A stretch of 64,000 bases of DNA from Escherichia phage ECO103 4-12-1, in the sequence record OR844650. One strand, written 5' to 3'. Position numbers and translations under genes: made by a program. Positions 50,548 to 53,746 of the stretch are shown piece after piece; position 1 is the stretch's first letter, and every line of letters begins with the position of its first letter. A model generated the notes under the pieces. That model saw only the letters and a program-made list of their open reading frames with translations, was not told the DNA's origin and did not search any database.

Positions 50548-50569
50548 TTATAAGTTGTCCCACTTATAA
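50548..50569. promoter_or_regulatory. perfect palindrome TTATAAGT-N6-ACTTATAA upstream of the 86-aa gene
   Basis: 8-bp perfect inverted repeat 34-55 bp upstream of the ATG at 50514; candidate operator or promoter element. Confidence 0.25.
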
Positions 50570-50596
50570 AAGAAGAGAACGGAATTTTCCGTTCTC
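50566..50596 (-). terminator. rho-independent terminator ending the ATPase-VWA operon
   Basis: GAGAACGG-N6-CCGTTCTC stem immediately after the VWA gene stop, followed on the minus strand by a U-rich tract. Confidence 0.5.
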
Positions 50597-50608
50597 ATTA
50601 TTTAGTAC

Positions 50609-52033
50609 TTAACTACGTTGACGCTTTTTATCAGCTTCATATTCGTAGTGTACAGTCTCACCAAATGGTGCAACTTTATTTGGGTTACTGTGAATCACGA
50701 ACAGTGTTTTACAGTAGTTTGGATCACCCCATGACTGCCACGGTTCACCATCAGTAAACATTACAAGCTGTTTAGGCTTGTAGTTGTCGTTCTTCATATG
50801 AACCCATACTGCTTCAAAGTCAGTACCACCACCACCTTTTACTGGATATTCCAGAATCTTACGTTCTTCGCCAGTTTTGTAATCCTTTACAGTATAAACT
50901 TCAGTATCAAAAGTCATGATACGAATCTTAAACTGTTTGAATTGTTTAGTGATGCCAAGAACTTCACTAATGAAATCACGAAGCATATCTTCAGAAATAG
51001 ACCCAGAAGCATCTAGTGCAATCGCAATATCAATATCATCATCTGGTTTCATCCCTGGGTAAATTGGATTACCATAGAATGAGCCATTAGAACCAAAACC
51101 TGCACCCCAAGAACGACGATTCGGATTTTGATATGTTGCATCAGACTTCAACCAACTACGAAGTGTACGTTGAAGTTTTGAACGCCAGTCAATCTTTGGT
51201 TCTTTAAAGTTGTTAATCATACGAGCGATTTCTGCTGGTGTACCACCTGCACGAGCAGCATTCATCATTGCTGTTTTGAAATCATCCATGTAATCACGTT
51301 TTTGCTGTTCACTTGAACCACCCTCTTGACCTTCTTGTGGAACGTCATGCTGGTCAATGGTAGTACCTTTTGGTTTACCCTTACCATCTTTAATATCGCC
51401 AAAAGTACCGCGATTTTTACCTTCACCTTCACCGCCGCCACTTTGTGGTTGACCTTCACCTTCACCATCTTCTTTTTGTTCTTCTTCTTCAAGAAGAATG
51501 TAAATCTCTTCTGCGGTCATGCCTTCATATTTTTTATCATACAACCATGAACTTTGGATTTTCCCAATTTTCTCACGAACGATGATTTGGTTAATGGCAT
51601 AATCCGCTGCACGGTTATAACGTTGTGGATCACGCATACCACGACGAAGGAAGTGATCGTAAGCACAGTGTAGAATTTCATGACAAATTACAGCAACAAG
51701 GTTTTCATCAGTCAAACCTTCAGTCATTTCTTTTAATTGTTCGTCTGTAACTTCAGGGTGCTTTTCACGAATAGCTTCTTCATATTCTTTCTTTTTAGAT
51801 GGGTCTTGAATGCCCATTACAAATTCTACGTTGTAGAATAGATGTTTACCATCCACTGCTAGAGTACGACACCATGTATTATTAGGAACTGGACGTAAAC
51901 GTGAAGCGAGTACACCAAAGAATGGTGCAGTTAACATCAAAGATGTACGAGCCAGAACCAGACGTTCTTGACATTCTTTCTGGAGTGCCGGAGATACTTC
52001 ATTGAATCTTGAAGTAGATTTGTTATCTGACAT
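50609..52033 (-). CDS. VWA-domain protein with N-terminal HExxH putative metallopeptidase domain
   Basis: HEILH zinc-binding-type motif in the N-terminal part (AVICHEILHCAYDHF); C-terminal von Willebrand A-like region with MIDAS-like DASGS (IAIALDASGSISED…TDGEPW). Confidence 0.65.
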   Translation of the reverse strand: MSDNKSTSRFNEVSPALQKECQERLVLARTSLMLTAPFFGVLASRLRPVPNNTWCRTLAVDGKHLFYNVEFVMGIQDPSKKKEYEEAIREKHPEVTDEQLKEMTEGLTDENLVAVICHEILHCAYDHFLRRGMRDPQRYNRAADYAINQIIVREKIGKIQSSWLYDKKYEGMTAEEIYILLEEEEQKEDGEGEGQPQSGGGEGEGKNRGTFGDIKDGKGKPKGTTIDQHDVPQEGQEGGSSEQQKRDYMDDFKTAMMNAARAGGTPAEIARMINNFKEPKIDWRSKLQRTLRSWLKSDATYQNPNRRSWGAGFGSNGSFYGNPIYPGMKPDDDIDIAIALDASGSISEDMLRDFISEVLGITKQFKQFKIRIMTFDTEVYTVKDYKTGEERKILEYPVKGGGGTDFEAVWVHMKNDNYKPKQLVMFTDGEPWQSWGDPNYCKTLFVIHSNPNKVAPFGETVHYEYEADKKRQRS

Positions 52034-52107
52034 GTATATTTCCTCGTTTAGTTAAGATAAAAGAAGGATACCATTAGGCATCCTTCTTGTCAACAACTCT
52101 TTGTTAA

Positions 52108-53433
52108 TTAGCCAAGAGAGCGTGCTTTACGTACAAGATCAGAGTACTTAGCGATGAAATCTTTAAACGCTGGTACATCTTTAATGGAAATCGCAACCTT
52201 ATGAAGCGTGATGGTACGAATTGCCAGTACTGCCAGTTCTGCTTGAGTTGCAGAGAAGTTATGGTCTAGGAAGGTGATGAAGTTGTTACACAGTTTACCC
52301 CATTCTTCCACTGGTAGACGTTGTTCTTGCTTCTCATTGAACAGGTCGATAATTTTATAAACCAAGTTCAGAGTGATAAAGTAGTTCGCAGAAATATCCA
52401 GCGTTGCGTCGATTTCTTTGATTTCACCAGACAGAATAGACATAGTATCTGGTAATTTAGCAACGTTCTCAACGTACTCAATGTATTCAGTTGCAACACC
52501 TTCACCAACACGACCAGCAATCATTGCACGGAACACTTCTTTATCAATTGTCTTAGTTTTCTTGAGATCTTCGTAGCGTGCTACTGCTTCCCATGAACGT
52601 GGAGAAGTACCACCACTGTGAGAAGGATCTTGTGGACTAAGTGTGTTAAAGTACTTAGAACCAGTGTTGTTGATGAACGCAACAGTTGCTGGGTTCAAAC
52701 GTTTTGCAATCGCATAATCGTTAATCCAATCTTGATGATAAGGAATCATCTCAATGTGAGTCATACGGTCACGCAGTGGTGTAGCAAGAGAGAAAGTTAC
52801 ACCGCCATCAGTTTCACGGTTACCTGCTGCAAGAATCAGTGCAGTCTTAGGTAGCTTCATCTCACCAACACAACGGTCGAGGATTAGCTGATAAGACGCT
52901 GCCTGAACAATAGGCATTGCAGAGTTAATTTCGTCAAACAGAATAACACCTTTCCAATCTTCGGACAATTTCAGAACTTTAGGTGCAGCCCATACTACCG
53001 CAGTTTCAGCTACATAATCTTTTGCTTCGGCAAGCTCAGATTCTTTCAGAAGAGAACCGTCAGTTTTACGGAAAAGCTTCTCTGGTACTGGAATACCGCG
53101 AAGGTCACTTGGTTCGATTTGAGACAAACGGAAATCGATAAAGTTAGTATCTTGGTCGATTAGTTTTGCTTCAAATGCAGCCAGTTCACGGCGTAGCTGA
53201 TCAGCATTTTCAGGGTCAGCTTCGATTTGTTGTTTCATGAACTCGATTTTAGCTACGTTATCTTTACGCAGTGGGTAATTTTCATCAGCGTATTGACGAG
53301 CGATTGCAGACTTACCGATACCTGGGCTACCCCAAATCATCAGGCTATCTTGAATCATGTCAGCTAGTGCCATTGCTTCTTTAGCTTTCTTTGGAGTCAG
53401 TTTAACGTTCAGGATATCGTTTTGAGTAGTCAT
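52108..53433 (-). CDS. MoxR-like AAA+ ATPase (AAA_5-type)
   Basis: Walker A GSPGIGKS, Walker B VILFDEINSA, sensor region ALILAAGNRETDG; immediately upstream of the VWA gene, as in bacterial MoxR-VWA pairs. Confidence 0.65.
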   Translation of the reverse strand: MTTQNDILNVKLTPKKAKEAMALADMIQDSLMIWGSPGIGKSAIARQYADENYPLRKDNVAKIEFMKQQIEADPENADQLRRELAAFEAKLIDQDTNFIDFRLSQIEPSDLRGIPVPEKLFRKTDGSLLKESELAEAKDYVAETAVVWAAPKVLKLSEDWKGVILFDEINSAMPIVQAASYQLILDRCVGEMKLPKTALILAAGNRETDGGVTFSLATPLRDRMTHIEMIPYHQDWINDYAIAKRLNPATVAFINNTGSKYFNTLSPQDPSHSGGTSPRSWEAVARYEDLKKTKTIDKEVFRAMIAGRVGEGVATEYIEYVENVAKLPDTMSILSGEIKEIDATLDISANYFITLNLVYKIIDLFNEKQEQRLPVEEWGKLCNNFITFLDHNFSATQAELAVLAIRTITLHKVAISIKDVPAFKDFIAKYSDLVRKARSLG

Positions 53434-53500
53434 GTATATATTTCCTTTTGTTGGATAAAATCGTTTAAGTTTCTATTATAGCCAATCCGTGGGCAAAAGT

Positions 53501-53541
53501 AAAGGAACTGTGTTAAAATAATTTAACTTATCAGTTCCTTT
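53501..53541. promoter_or_regulatory. perfect 10-bp inverted repeat (AAAGGAACTG-N21-CAGTTCCTTT) in the leader of the ATPase-VWA operon
   Basis: Read directly from the sequence; lies between the candidate promoters and the ATPase start codon. Confidence 0.35.
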
Positions 53542-53602
53542 GTTACTTCATGAATCATCCGTGTGTTTAAAAGGTAAATCTCTTTGCTGTCTTGATGTGA
53601 AC

Positions 53603-53628
53603 ATTATATCACATCGTTTCAACTTGTC
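53603..53628 (-). promoter_or_regulatory. candidate sigma70-like promoter (TTGACA-N14-TATAAT on the minus strand), copy 1 of a 26-bp direct repeat
   Basis: Minus-strand TTGACA at 53628-53623 and TATAAT at 53608-53603; the spacer is short (14 nt), so function is uncertain. Confidence 0.25.
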
Positions 53629-53695
53629 AATCACTTTTTTTCTTTTTTTTCAAACTCACATCTTGTGTCGCTTGAAAACTTTATGTCTGATGCTT

Positions 53696-53722
53696 ATTGT
53701 ATCACATCATTCTATCTTGTCA
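53696..53722 (-). promoter_or_regulatory. candidate sigma70-like promoter (TTGACA-N15-TACAAT on the minus strand), copy 2 of the direct repeat
   Basis: Minus-strand TTGACA at 53722-53717 and TACAAT at 53701-53696; 21 of 26 positions identical to copy 1. Confidence 0.3.
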
Positions 53723-53746
53723 ACATTTATTTTTAATTCATTTTTC

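Follow-up and report, generated by a model that had tools for sequence, protein, structure and literature searches.

Known MoxR-VWA couples and the pair of an Asteriusvirus

For CbbQ/CbbO, NorQ/NorD, RavA/ViaA and midasin, the stoichiometry of hexamer to adaptor and the binding of clients through a metal-ion-dependent adhesion site (MIDAS) are known. A pair of related type lies in the 64,000-nucleotide stretch of Escherichia phage ECO103 4-12-1 analysed here (record OR844650; referred to as the window), in which the genes for an ATPase of the MoxR-like AAA+ type and for a partner with a zincin domain and a von Willebrand factor A (VWA) domain are adjacent on the minus strand in the same orientation, the ATPase gene first. 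Over 3.6 kb the region matches Escherichia phages PBECO4 and SHEFM2K at 100% identity and 121Q and phAPEC6 at 99.2%, and the source phage is a member of the genus Asteriusvirus, a Rak2-like jumbo myovirus of about 350 kb. The pair is an ordinary conserved member of a phage module that has already been described, and reported for exactly these phages. The gene pair itself is not new; a leader hairpin and an intergenic terminator are modest new details, and the promoter class of the unit, an extended -10 type linked to non-structural genes, is new here as far as can be told.

The closest published account is that of Iyer et al. (2021, Viruses 13:63; PMC7824862, section 3.4.5), who reported a MoxR AAA+ ATPase-vWA pair in the group 2.2 jumbo phages, the vWA protein with an N-terminal metallopeptidase, and who proposed by analogy with Acidianus two-tailed virus (ATV) a role in virion assembly with peptidolytic processing. 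These are the same proteins in the same phage group, although that account is computational and does not include the promoters, the leader hairpin or the intergenic hairpin. The GenBank record of phAPEC6 likewise notes gp265c as 'MoxR ATPase' and gp264c as 'N4 gp25-like protein', and N4 gp24 (AAA+ ATPase) and gp25 (vWFA) are among the approximately 14 core genes of N4-like phages, where they are described as middle genes. A first-pass annotation of the window had implied that the pair is new and had placed it outside any canonical virion or replication module; both points are overstated in view of these earlier reports and of the place of the pair beside middle and nucleotide-metabolism genes in the N4-like core.

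The homologous pair of N4 and other Schitoviridae shares its domain architecture and gene order with the pair of the window at an identity of just 25-30%. Searches of N4-like genomes with tblastn gave E values of 4e-7 (G7C gp25) and 1e-18 to 4e-19 (N4-like Pseudomonas phages) for the partner and of 1e-17 to 5e-21 for the ATPase, and the partner matched a protein of the N4-like Klebsiella phage FBKp27 in fold over its full length (TM 0.65/0.78). Compared with N4 gp24, the jumbo-phage ATPase carries about 80 additional residues, made up of a coiled coil inserted behind Walker A and an extended beta-hairpin; compared with N4 gp25, about 30 residues are inserted in the partner ahead of the HExxH helix. 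Transcription differs as well: the N4 pair, reported as middle genes, is read by the RNA polymerase II (RNAP1/RNAP2) of N4, whereas the promoters found here are sigma-70-like.

Among cellular systems, CbbQ/CbbO (Rubisco activase) and NorQ/NorD (nitric-oxide reductase maturation), which combine an ATPase of the MoxR CGN subfamily with a VWA protein, have the same ATPase-then-VWA order and an intact MIDAS. CbbO and NorD, however, have no zincin domain and perform no proteolysis, sequence identity is about 15%, and their clients, Rubisco and NorB, are without counterpart here. ATV p618 (MoxR) and ORF892 (VWA) also form a viral MoxR-VWA couple and are the cited precedent for an assembly role, but they belong to an archaeal virus and have no peptidase domain, and ORF892 matches the VWA part of the partner only (Foldseek E 1e-5, TM 0.24). 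In T4-like cyanophages, a 'MoxR-like ATPase' of S-TIM61 is 27.7% identical to the ATPase over 71% of its length, and S-TIM5 encodes a full-length 'metallopeptidase'-VWA fold homologue of the partner. For the comparison with CobS/CobT-like pairs suggested by the first-pass annotation, no CobS/CobT family model is among the Pfam matches (E <= 0.01) of either protein; CobT also differs from the partner in having no zincin domain. The coupling of an AAA+ motor to an HExxH zincin site would follow the same logic as in the FtsH-type zinc metalloproteases. FtsH differs in being one membrane-anchored polypeptide with a classical-clade ATPase and no VWA/MIDAS selector, and homology between the peptidase domains is undetectable.

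Judged by its motifs and homologues, the ATPase is a MoxR-class (CbbQ/NorQ-like) AAA+ protein. The GSPGIGKS and ILFDEIN motifs fall at residues 35-42 and approximately 164-170, the match to PHROG 1297 has an E value of 3e-107, and Walker A, the Walker B glutamate E168, sensor 1 N205, the arginine finger and sensor 2 R279 are all intact. Across 65 homologues, G35, G38, K41, S42, E168, N205, R223 and R279 are invariant and D167 nearly so, and of its fold matches in the MoxR family NorQ and CbbQ rank first. The MoxR-like call of the first-pass annotation is supported. Its more specific label, AAA_5-type, does not apply to this protein at the Pfam level: the match to the generic AAA family is marginal (21.3 bits, cut-off 21.2), there is no match to AAA_5 (PF07728), and AAA_3 (PF07726) reaches 16.7 bits, under its cut-off of 27. 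Homologues of about 30% identity that do not have the jumbo-phage inserts do match AAA_3/AAA_5, so this failure can be ascribed to divergence and insertions.

The N-terminal half of the partner is, from its sequence and predicted fold, a zincin-type (HExxHxxxxH) putative metallopeptidase domain, followed by a C-terminal VWA domain with a MIDAS. The HEILH motif occupies residues 118-122 and DASGS residues 341-345. Pfam assigned DUF2201_N (PF13203) with an E value of 2e-35 (123 bits, cut-off 23.2) and the VWA-like domain DUF2201 with 7e-21, PHROG 1314 matched with 7e-128, weak matches around HExxH came from Peptidase_M48 and PhageMetallopep, and a Rossmann-like VWA fold was found. Neither the 72 viral homologues nor the bacterial ones vary at H118, E119 or H122, H127 is at least 90% conserved, and the MIDAS residues D341, S343, S345, T404 and D428 (DxSxS...T...D) are invariant in the same 72 homologues and in the bacterial copies. 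The HExxH zinc domain joined to a VWA/MIDAS domain, as the first-pass annotation had it, and a domain of the DUF2201_N type in particular, are both recovered, and the invariant HExxH together with the lack of any CobS/CobT match speaks against the alternative of an ordinary CobS ATPase beside a partner in which this motif is not conserved. Neither protein has a match in NCBIfam or PADLOC. When the proteins were compared with PDB sequences, singly or as profiles, just P-loop or marginal VWA matches and no solved structure of the DUF2201_N family came up, and a literature search on 'DUF2201' returned unrelated papers only and no biochemical report.

Two database labels of the partner deserve comment. 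Its description as a membrane protein, as in the label of CBB_217, was rejected, the hydrophobic N-terminal helices being the conserved, confidently modelled core of DUF2201_N. In PBECO4, SHEFM2K, 121Q RefSeq, BF17, XaC1, Vibrio phages and others, the partner is labelled 'HNH endonuclease' because PHROG 1314 bears that name. No HNH domain was detected in it, and the label looks like a propagated mis-annotation, which may go back to the HNH genes that separate gp24 from gp25 in certain N4-like phages, such as gp24.1 of G7C. As the partner is widely misnamed in this way through PHROG 1314, the annotation should be corrected.

Homologues detected by tblastn occur in 683 phage records for the partner and in 814 for the ATPase, with carriers among Rak2-like jumbo, PA5oct-like, rV5-like, PVP-SE1-like, phiTE-like, N4-like and other phages. 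Fold homologues of the full two-domain partner are found in N4-like phages, cyanophage S-TIM5, the Bacillus jumbo phage PBS1 and crAss-like viruses. In 73 of 80 environmental viral loci with an ATPase of about 30% identity, the next gene downstream, in the same orientation, is that of the partner; of the seven remaining loci, five are truncated. The ATPase-then-partner order is also kept in most of 80 bacterial loci, many of them from sulfur-oxidising Gammaproteobacteria; in SUP05-type genomes, NnrS and hemerythrin genes are inserted between the two and a rhodanese gene follows. LipA and LipB genes lie upstream of the pair on the other strand in SUP05/Thioglobus loci (4143-8524 of locus L137; also L118, L126, L132, L146 and others). 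Another bacterial group carries, behind the pair, conserved unannotated genes for proteins of about 372 and 182 residues with no Pfam match.

Promoters and RNA elements of the unit

The features of the unit are listed in Table 1. The dedicated promoter region and the 3' terminator hairpin (50575-50596) noted in the first-pass annotation are present and conserved in related genera.

Table 1. Coordinates of genes and signals of the MoxR-VWA unit in the window
Feature	Position	Strand	Description
Promoter P1	53696..53723	minus	TTGACA-16-TACAAT, TG extended -10, A-rich upstream tract; kept in Asteriusvirus BF17, UE-S1 and Klebsiella phage KP13-7
Promoter P2	53603..53630	minus	TTGACA-16-TATAAT (12/12), TG extended -10, upstream A-tract; direct repeat of P1
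Upstream CGGAT (NGGA[T/A]) motif	53557..53561	minus	20 nt 5' of leader hairpin; similar motif 10-20 nt upstream in 7/8 lineages
Leader hairpin	53501..53541	minus	perfect 10-bp inverted repeat (I13); arms AAAGGAACTG / CAGTTCCTTT, 21-nt loop with inner stem, then UUUACUUUUG
Weak candidate promoter P3	53475..53503	minus	TTTACT-17-TATAAT, overlaps 3' arm of hairpin; -10 seen only in Asteriusvirus and Alcyoneusvirus
Downstream CGGAT motif	53485..53489	minus	11 nt 3' of leader hairpin; 11-13 nt after hairpin in 7/8 lineages
MoxR-like AAA+ ATPase gene	52108..53433	minus	441 aa; N4 gp24 homologue; open reading frame, PHROG 1297, homologue alignments
Intergenic terminator-like hairpin	52061..52088	minus	12 bp then UUUUAUCUU; -18.6 kcal/mol, z -6.4
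Zincin (DUF2201_N, HEILHxxxxH) and VWA/MIDAS (DUF2201) gene	50609..52033	minus	474 aa; N4 gp25 homologue; Pfam, PHROG 1314, fold matches
Intrinsic terminator closing the unit	50575..50596	minus	9 bp and T-run; -14.6 kcal/mol, z -6.0; positional equivalent in 9/9 lineages
Promoter of next transcription unit	50534..50561	minus	GGGACA-16-TATAAT, same class as P1/P2; downstream boundary; CBB equivalent Porf_218

The two direct repeats that had been read as TTGACA-type promoters were recovered as P1 and P2 (53723..53696 and 53630..53603), each with a TG extended -10, and they form a repeat family (D1) of 48 nt with 71% identity and a spacing of 93. P2 is conserved within Asteriusvirus and degenerate in Klebsiella phage KP13-7. 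The extended -10 word ATGTGATAYAAT has three exact copies in the 64 kb, two of them in the P1/P2 region, and eight matches against 2.9 expected when one mismatch is allowed. Sigma-70 consensus sites with at least 11 of 12 positions number 10 in the window against an expected 4.5 +/- 2.0, six of them on the minus strand in 53600-54770, and promoter matches in the window exceed chance. These six, all within 1.2 kb where about 4.5 are expected across the whole 64 kb, are P1, P2 and four sites in coding regions. The latter, at 54766, 54321, 54210 and 53874 on the minus strand (11-12/12; 53846-54766), lie inside three open reading frames (ORFs) upstream of the ATPase leader and have neither a TG extension nor an A-tract. 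The candidate P3 was rejected as a general ATPase promoter on the ground that only close relatives keep its -10, and it is probably lineage-specific or not real.

Four extended -10 sites of the window, namely P1, P2, the promoter of a ClpB/Hsp100-like gene and the site at 50561..50534, share the pattern GACAA-N8-AA-N-AT(G/A)TGATAYAAT, and the counterpart of the last of these is listed as Porf_218 in the CBB paper (PMC5259590). At the P2 position, the ATPase leader of Serratia BF, a Yersinia phage, CBB and XaC1 opens instead with TGAAAC(G/A)-N13-TGGTATAAT (TG(G)TATAAT), a type of site designated 'Promoter 1' in the CBB paper and found there mainly before DNA-synthesis genes (PMC5259590). Structural genes of the window, among them the virion protein gene at 17165 and the tail genes at 35282 and 61846, are preceded at 13-65 nt by late-type ATAAATA[AT][AT] motifs, and no such ATAAATA motif is found in the ATPase leader. 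With its different promoter class and no late motif in its leader, the pair seems to have transcription of its own, apart from that of the late structural genes around it. Its timing of expression may be inferred from the promoter class, which in CBB is linked to DNA-synthesis genes, and from N4 gp24/gp25 being reported as middle genes.

The ClpB/Hsp100-like gene (29491..27203, minus) lies within the structural region and encodes a two-ring Hsp100/ClpB-ClpA-like AAA+ protein of 762 residues with Pfam matches to AAA, AAA_2, AAA_lid_9 and ClpB_D2-small; in SHEFM2K it is named 'ATP-dependent protease'. Its promoter (29559..29532, minus) is of the type TAGACAA...ATGTGATATAAT. The MoxR unit has this promoter type too, and the sharing points to a group of chaperone or remodelling genes under common regulation.

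The perfect 10-bp inverted repeat reported at 53501-53541 is present (arms 53501-53510 and 53532-53541) and folds as RNA at -17.6 kcal/mol (z -4.5). Across eight lineages the leader keeps the order of promoter, NGGA(T/A), stem AAGGCACTG/CAGTGCCTT, T-run (CTCTTTTG or TTTACTTTTG), NGGA(T/A) and ATG, with a near-constant 56-70 nt from the end of the hairpin to the ATG. When the stems were compared by explicit stem extraction, MAFFT having mis-registered the 5' arms since loop lengths differ, a C-G pair was seen to become A-T in Asteriusvirus and a G-C pair A-T in CBB, one whole pair was lost in Klebsiella phage KP13-7, and the loop ranged from 4 to 23 nt. No Rfam family fits this leader, the two chance-level matches (E 0.17 and 0.41) being far under the gathering scores.

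The first-pass annotation had placed this repeat in a promoter-operator region, and a DNA operator bound by a dimeric repressor that controls the promoters is very improbable as its function, even though the repeat is perfect over 10 bp and overlaps P3 and a palindromic operator would also be expected to co-vary symmetrically in both arms. The spacing of the arms differs among lineages while the stem co-varies, a T-run always follows, the RNA fold is stable, and the repeat does not cover the strong promoters but lies 50-200 nt downstream. The variable spacing together with the T-run favours an RNA hairpin over an operator. The element could be an attenuator, the terminator of an upstream operon or a protein-binding leader, and the paired GGA motifs around it recall CsrA-type sites.

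A further hairpin, absent from the first-pass annotation, lies between the two genes (52088..52061). It is found in nine of nine Rak2-like lineages, with freely drifting sequence. Of the distant viral loci 41 of 54 have such a hairpin at this place, compared with 17 of 190 of their other co-directional intergenic gaps; the Fisher value of this comparison (p ~1e-21) is no true probability, as the loci are related. It is plausible that this hairpin acts as a partial terminator that would give more ATPase than partner, an excess that would suit the hexamer-plus-one-adaptor stoichiometry known from CbbQ/CbbO and NorQ/NorD. In many distant IMG/VR loci (L014, L015, L018, L021, L032-L038 and others), a GC-rich intergenic hairpin (e.g. 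CACCTCCTTCGGGAGGTG) close behind the ATPase stop codon is directly followed by TTATAAT. This word resembles a -10, and the element may there combine a terminator with a restart promoter.

Possible functions of the pair

Considered jointly, these observations point to a self-contained two-gene unit that encodes in effect a split metalloprotease, driven by ATP and with the MIDAS picking its substrates, is expressed separately from its surroundings and is modulated by hairpins, a model that we regard as somewhat more probable than otherwise. Transcription of the unit would start at the tandem sigma-70-like extended -10 promoters, the conserved leader hairpin with its U-tract would attenuate or otherwise control it, and the intergenic hairpin would cut read-through into the VWA gene, leaving more ATPase than partner and fitting a 6:1 complex. 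By analogy with characterised MoxR-VWA pairs, the MoxR ATPase hexamer would dock one VWA protein, the MIDAS of which would grip an acidic residue of a client protein, and ATP hydrolysis would remodel the client and present it to the partner's own zinc site for cleavage. Proteolysis is proposed because the zincin motif is invariant. As the pair is core and strongly conserved in several phage lineages, a variable defence target appears a less likely client than a phage protein or an invariant host protein on which all carriers depend.

Several points weigh against the model of a separately expressed split protease. The zincin domain could hold a metal without cleaving, and the ATPase itself is under the Pfam thresholds of AAA_3 and AAA_5. 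Both hairpins may be plain terminators or RNA-stability elements, and the locus counts are phylogenetically non-independent. The pair is also not always adjacent: in rV5-like phages the two genes diverge, with 3.6 kb between them, and in a PA5oct-like phage about 3 kb separates them, so a fixed transcript ratio cannot be essential. In the virion proteome of phAPEC6 the ATPase gp265c was detected with six peptides (19% coverage), a finding that accords more readily with a role in structure or assembly than with an early role; thymidylate synthase was found too, and the partner is not listed. No experimental study of what the pair does was found for any phage. The genome-wide CRISPRi-ART screens of T4, T5, SUSP1 and PTXU04 (PMC11879866) include no carrier, their sole 'VWFA' entry being an unrelated DUF2828 protein, and the main text of the PA5oct RNA-seq paper makes no mention of the pair.

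The virion assembly and maturation role already published for these phages (PMC7824862), in which the pair would chaperone tail, neck or giant virion proteins and cleave structural proteins in a manner reminiscent of the ATV couple, which supports tail growth, is a reading that we hold possible, though doubtful. In Rak2-like phages the pair ends a cluster of tail-sheath, tail-tube, head-closure and virion-protein genes on the same strand, the phAPEC6 mass spectrometry includes the ATPase, the VWA domain is matched in fold by ATV ORF892, and roseophage RPP1 has a second structural module beside its gp24/gp25 homologues. The promoter class, however, is unlike the late ATAAATA type of the neighbouring structural genes, the N4-like pair is described as middle genes beside those for dCTP deaminase and thymidylate synthase, and the rV5-like pair lies among small early-type genes near rIIA. 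The annotators of CBB and Serratia BF left the pair unmarked as structural although its neighbours were marked, the virions of the carriers are very diverse (podoviruses, myoviruses and jumbo phages), and the phAPEC6 list does not include the VWA-peptidase; it does include thymidylate synthase, so the preparation carried non-structural proteins.

As a protease for host take-over or counter-defence, the pair would act early in infection, the MIDAS picking a host protein, such as an immune or stress factor, for the ATPase to unfold and the zincin to cut. Sigma-70-like promoters usable by unmodified host RNA polymerase, the early-like regions occupied by the pair in rV5-like phages, the ClpB/Hsp100-like gene under the same promoter class and the frequency of MoxR-vWA couples in bacterial conflict systems (PMC7159879) are in its favour; yet it appears unlikely, as the pair is core and slowly evolving in N4-like phages, with hosts from Escherichia to Roseobacter, cyanobacteria and Bacillus, unlike accessory anti-defence genes, PADLOC is without a match, and the bacterial chromosomal copies have housekeeping-like surroundings (lipoate synthesis, NnrS, hemerythrin, rhodanese). 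A system for activation or metal insertion without proteolysis, as in NorQ/NorD, CbbQ/CbbO or CobS/CobT, which would activate or metallate an enzyme, for example of nucleotide metabolism, with HExxH as a metal-binding or transfer site, is rather improbable. It would accord with the NorQ and CbbQ fold matches of the ATPase, with NorD among the VWA matches, with the repeated proximity of the pair to thymidylate synthase or dCTP deaminase genes in Rak2-like and N4-like phages, and with its interleaving with the metal- and nitric oxide-related NnrS and hemerythrin in SUP05-type genomes. The catalytic glutamate of HExxH is invariant, though, a signature of hydrolysis and not of simple metal binding; NorD, CbbO and CobT have no zincin domain, neither protein has a CobS/CobT match in Pfam, and the link to nucleotide metabolism is missing in rV5-like and PA5oct-like phages.

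Taken furthest, the split-protease model would make the gp24/gp25-type module a MIDAS-targeted protease acting in an essential pre-assembly step common to N4-like, rV5-like and Rak2-like phages, its dosage set by two undescribed cis-RNA features: a leader attenuator or RNA-binding-protein site, possibly of CsrA type, and a near-universal intergenic terminator giving an excess of ATPase. In this full form the proposal is speculative and has a low probability of being correct. The pair is among the few function-unassigned core genes of N4-like phages and occurs also in very different phage lineages and in bacterial chromosomes, and to identify its client would close a gap of long standing in the account of how phages multiply, namely an assembly, replication or take-over step with ATP-driven remodelling and proteolysis. 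The promoter class, the leader hairpin and the intergenic terminator provide concrete handles for experiments.

Neighbouring genes and minor observations

Upstream of the pair on the same strand lie genes for the tail sheath, three tail-tube paralogues, a head-closure protein and several virion proteins. Downstream, still on the same strand (48069-50514, minus), follow two small ORFs, an SLOG/DprA-like gene (PHROG 768) and the gene for thymidylate synthase (ThyA), beyond which lie convergent tail-fibre genes. The description of the pair as embedded among tail genes is roughly right, given the upstream side and the converging tail fibres, although the immediate downstream genes are non-structural. 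The gene order around the pair is also kept in Alcyoneusvirus, Eneladusvirus and one Salmonella relative. In the N4-like phage G7C (6618-9179 of locus L169), gp24 is followed by an HNH insertion, gp25 and, directly after it, dCTP deaminase, with ThyX another 1.6 kb on and rIIA also further on. The pair recurrently adjoins nucleotide-metabolism or middle genes, and its structural neighbourhood is specific to Rak2-like phages.

On the opposite strand, SHEFM2K has a 75-aa ORF, M2K_0554 (53540-53767, plus; no PHROG), which runs across the ATPase leader and overlaps its promoters and hairpin; it is most likely a spurious gene call. A 180-aa ORF at about 57060-57600 (minus; 30027-30569 in locus L086) is called 'Hsp70 heat shock protein' (PHROG 16152) in SHEFM2K, and its length is far below the size of Hsp70. 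The interval 17165-27166 (plus) is a single ORF of 3,333 residues, a virion structural protein according to SHEFM2K, with a late-type ATAAATA motif 13 nt before its start.

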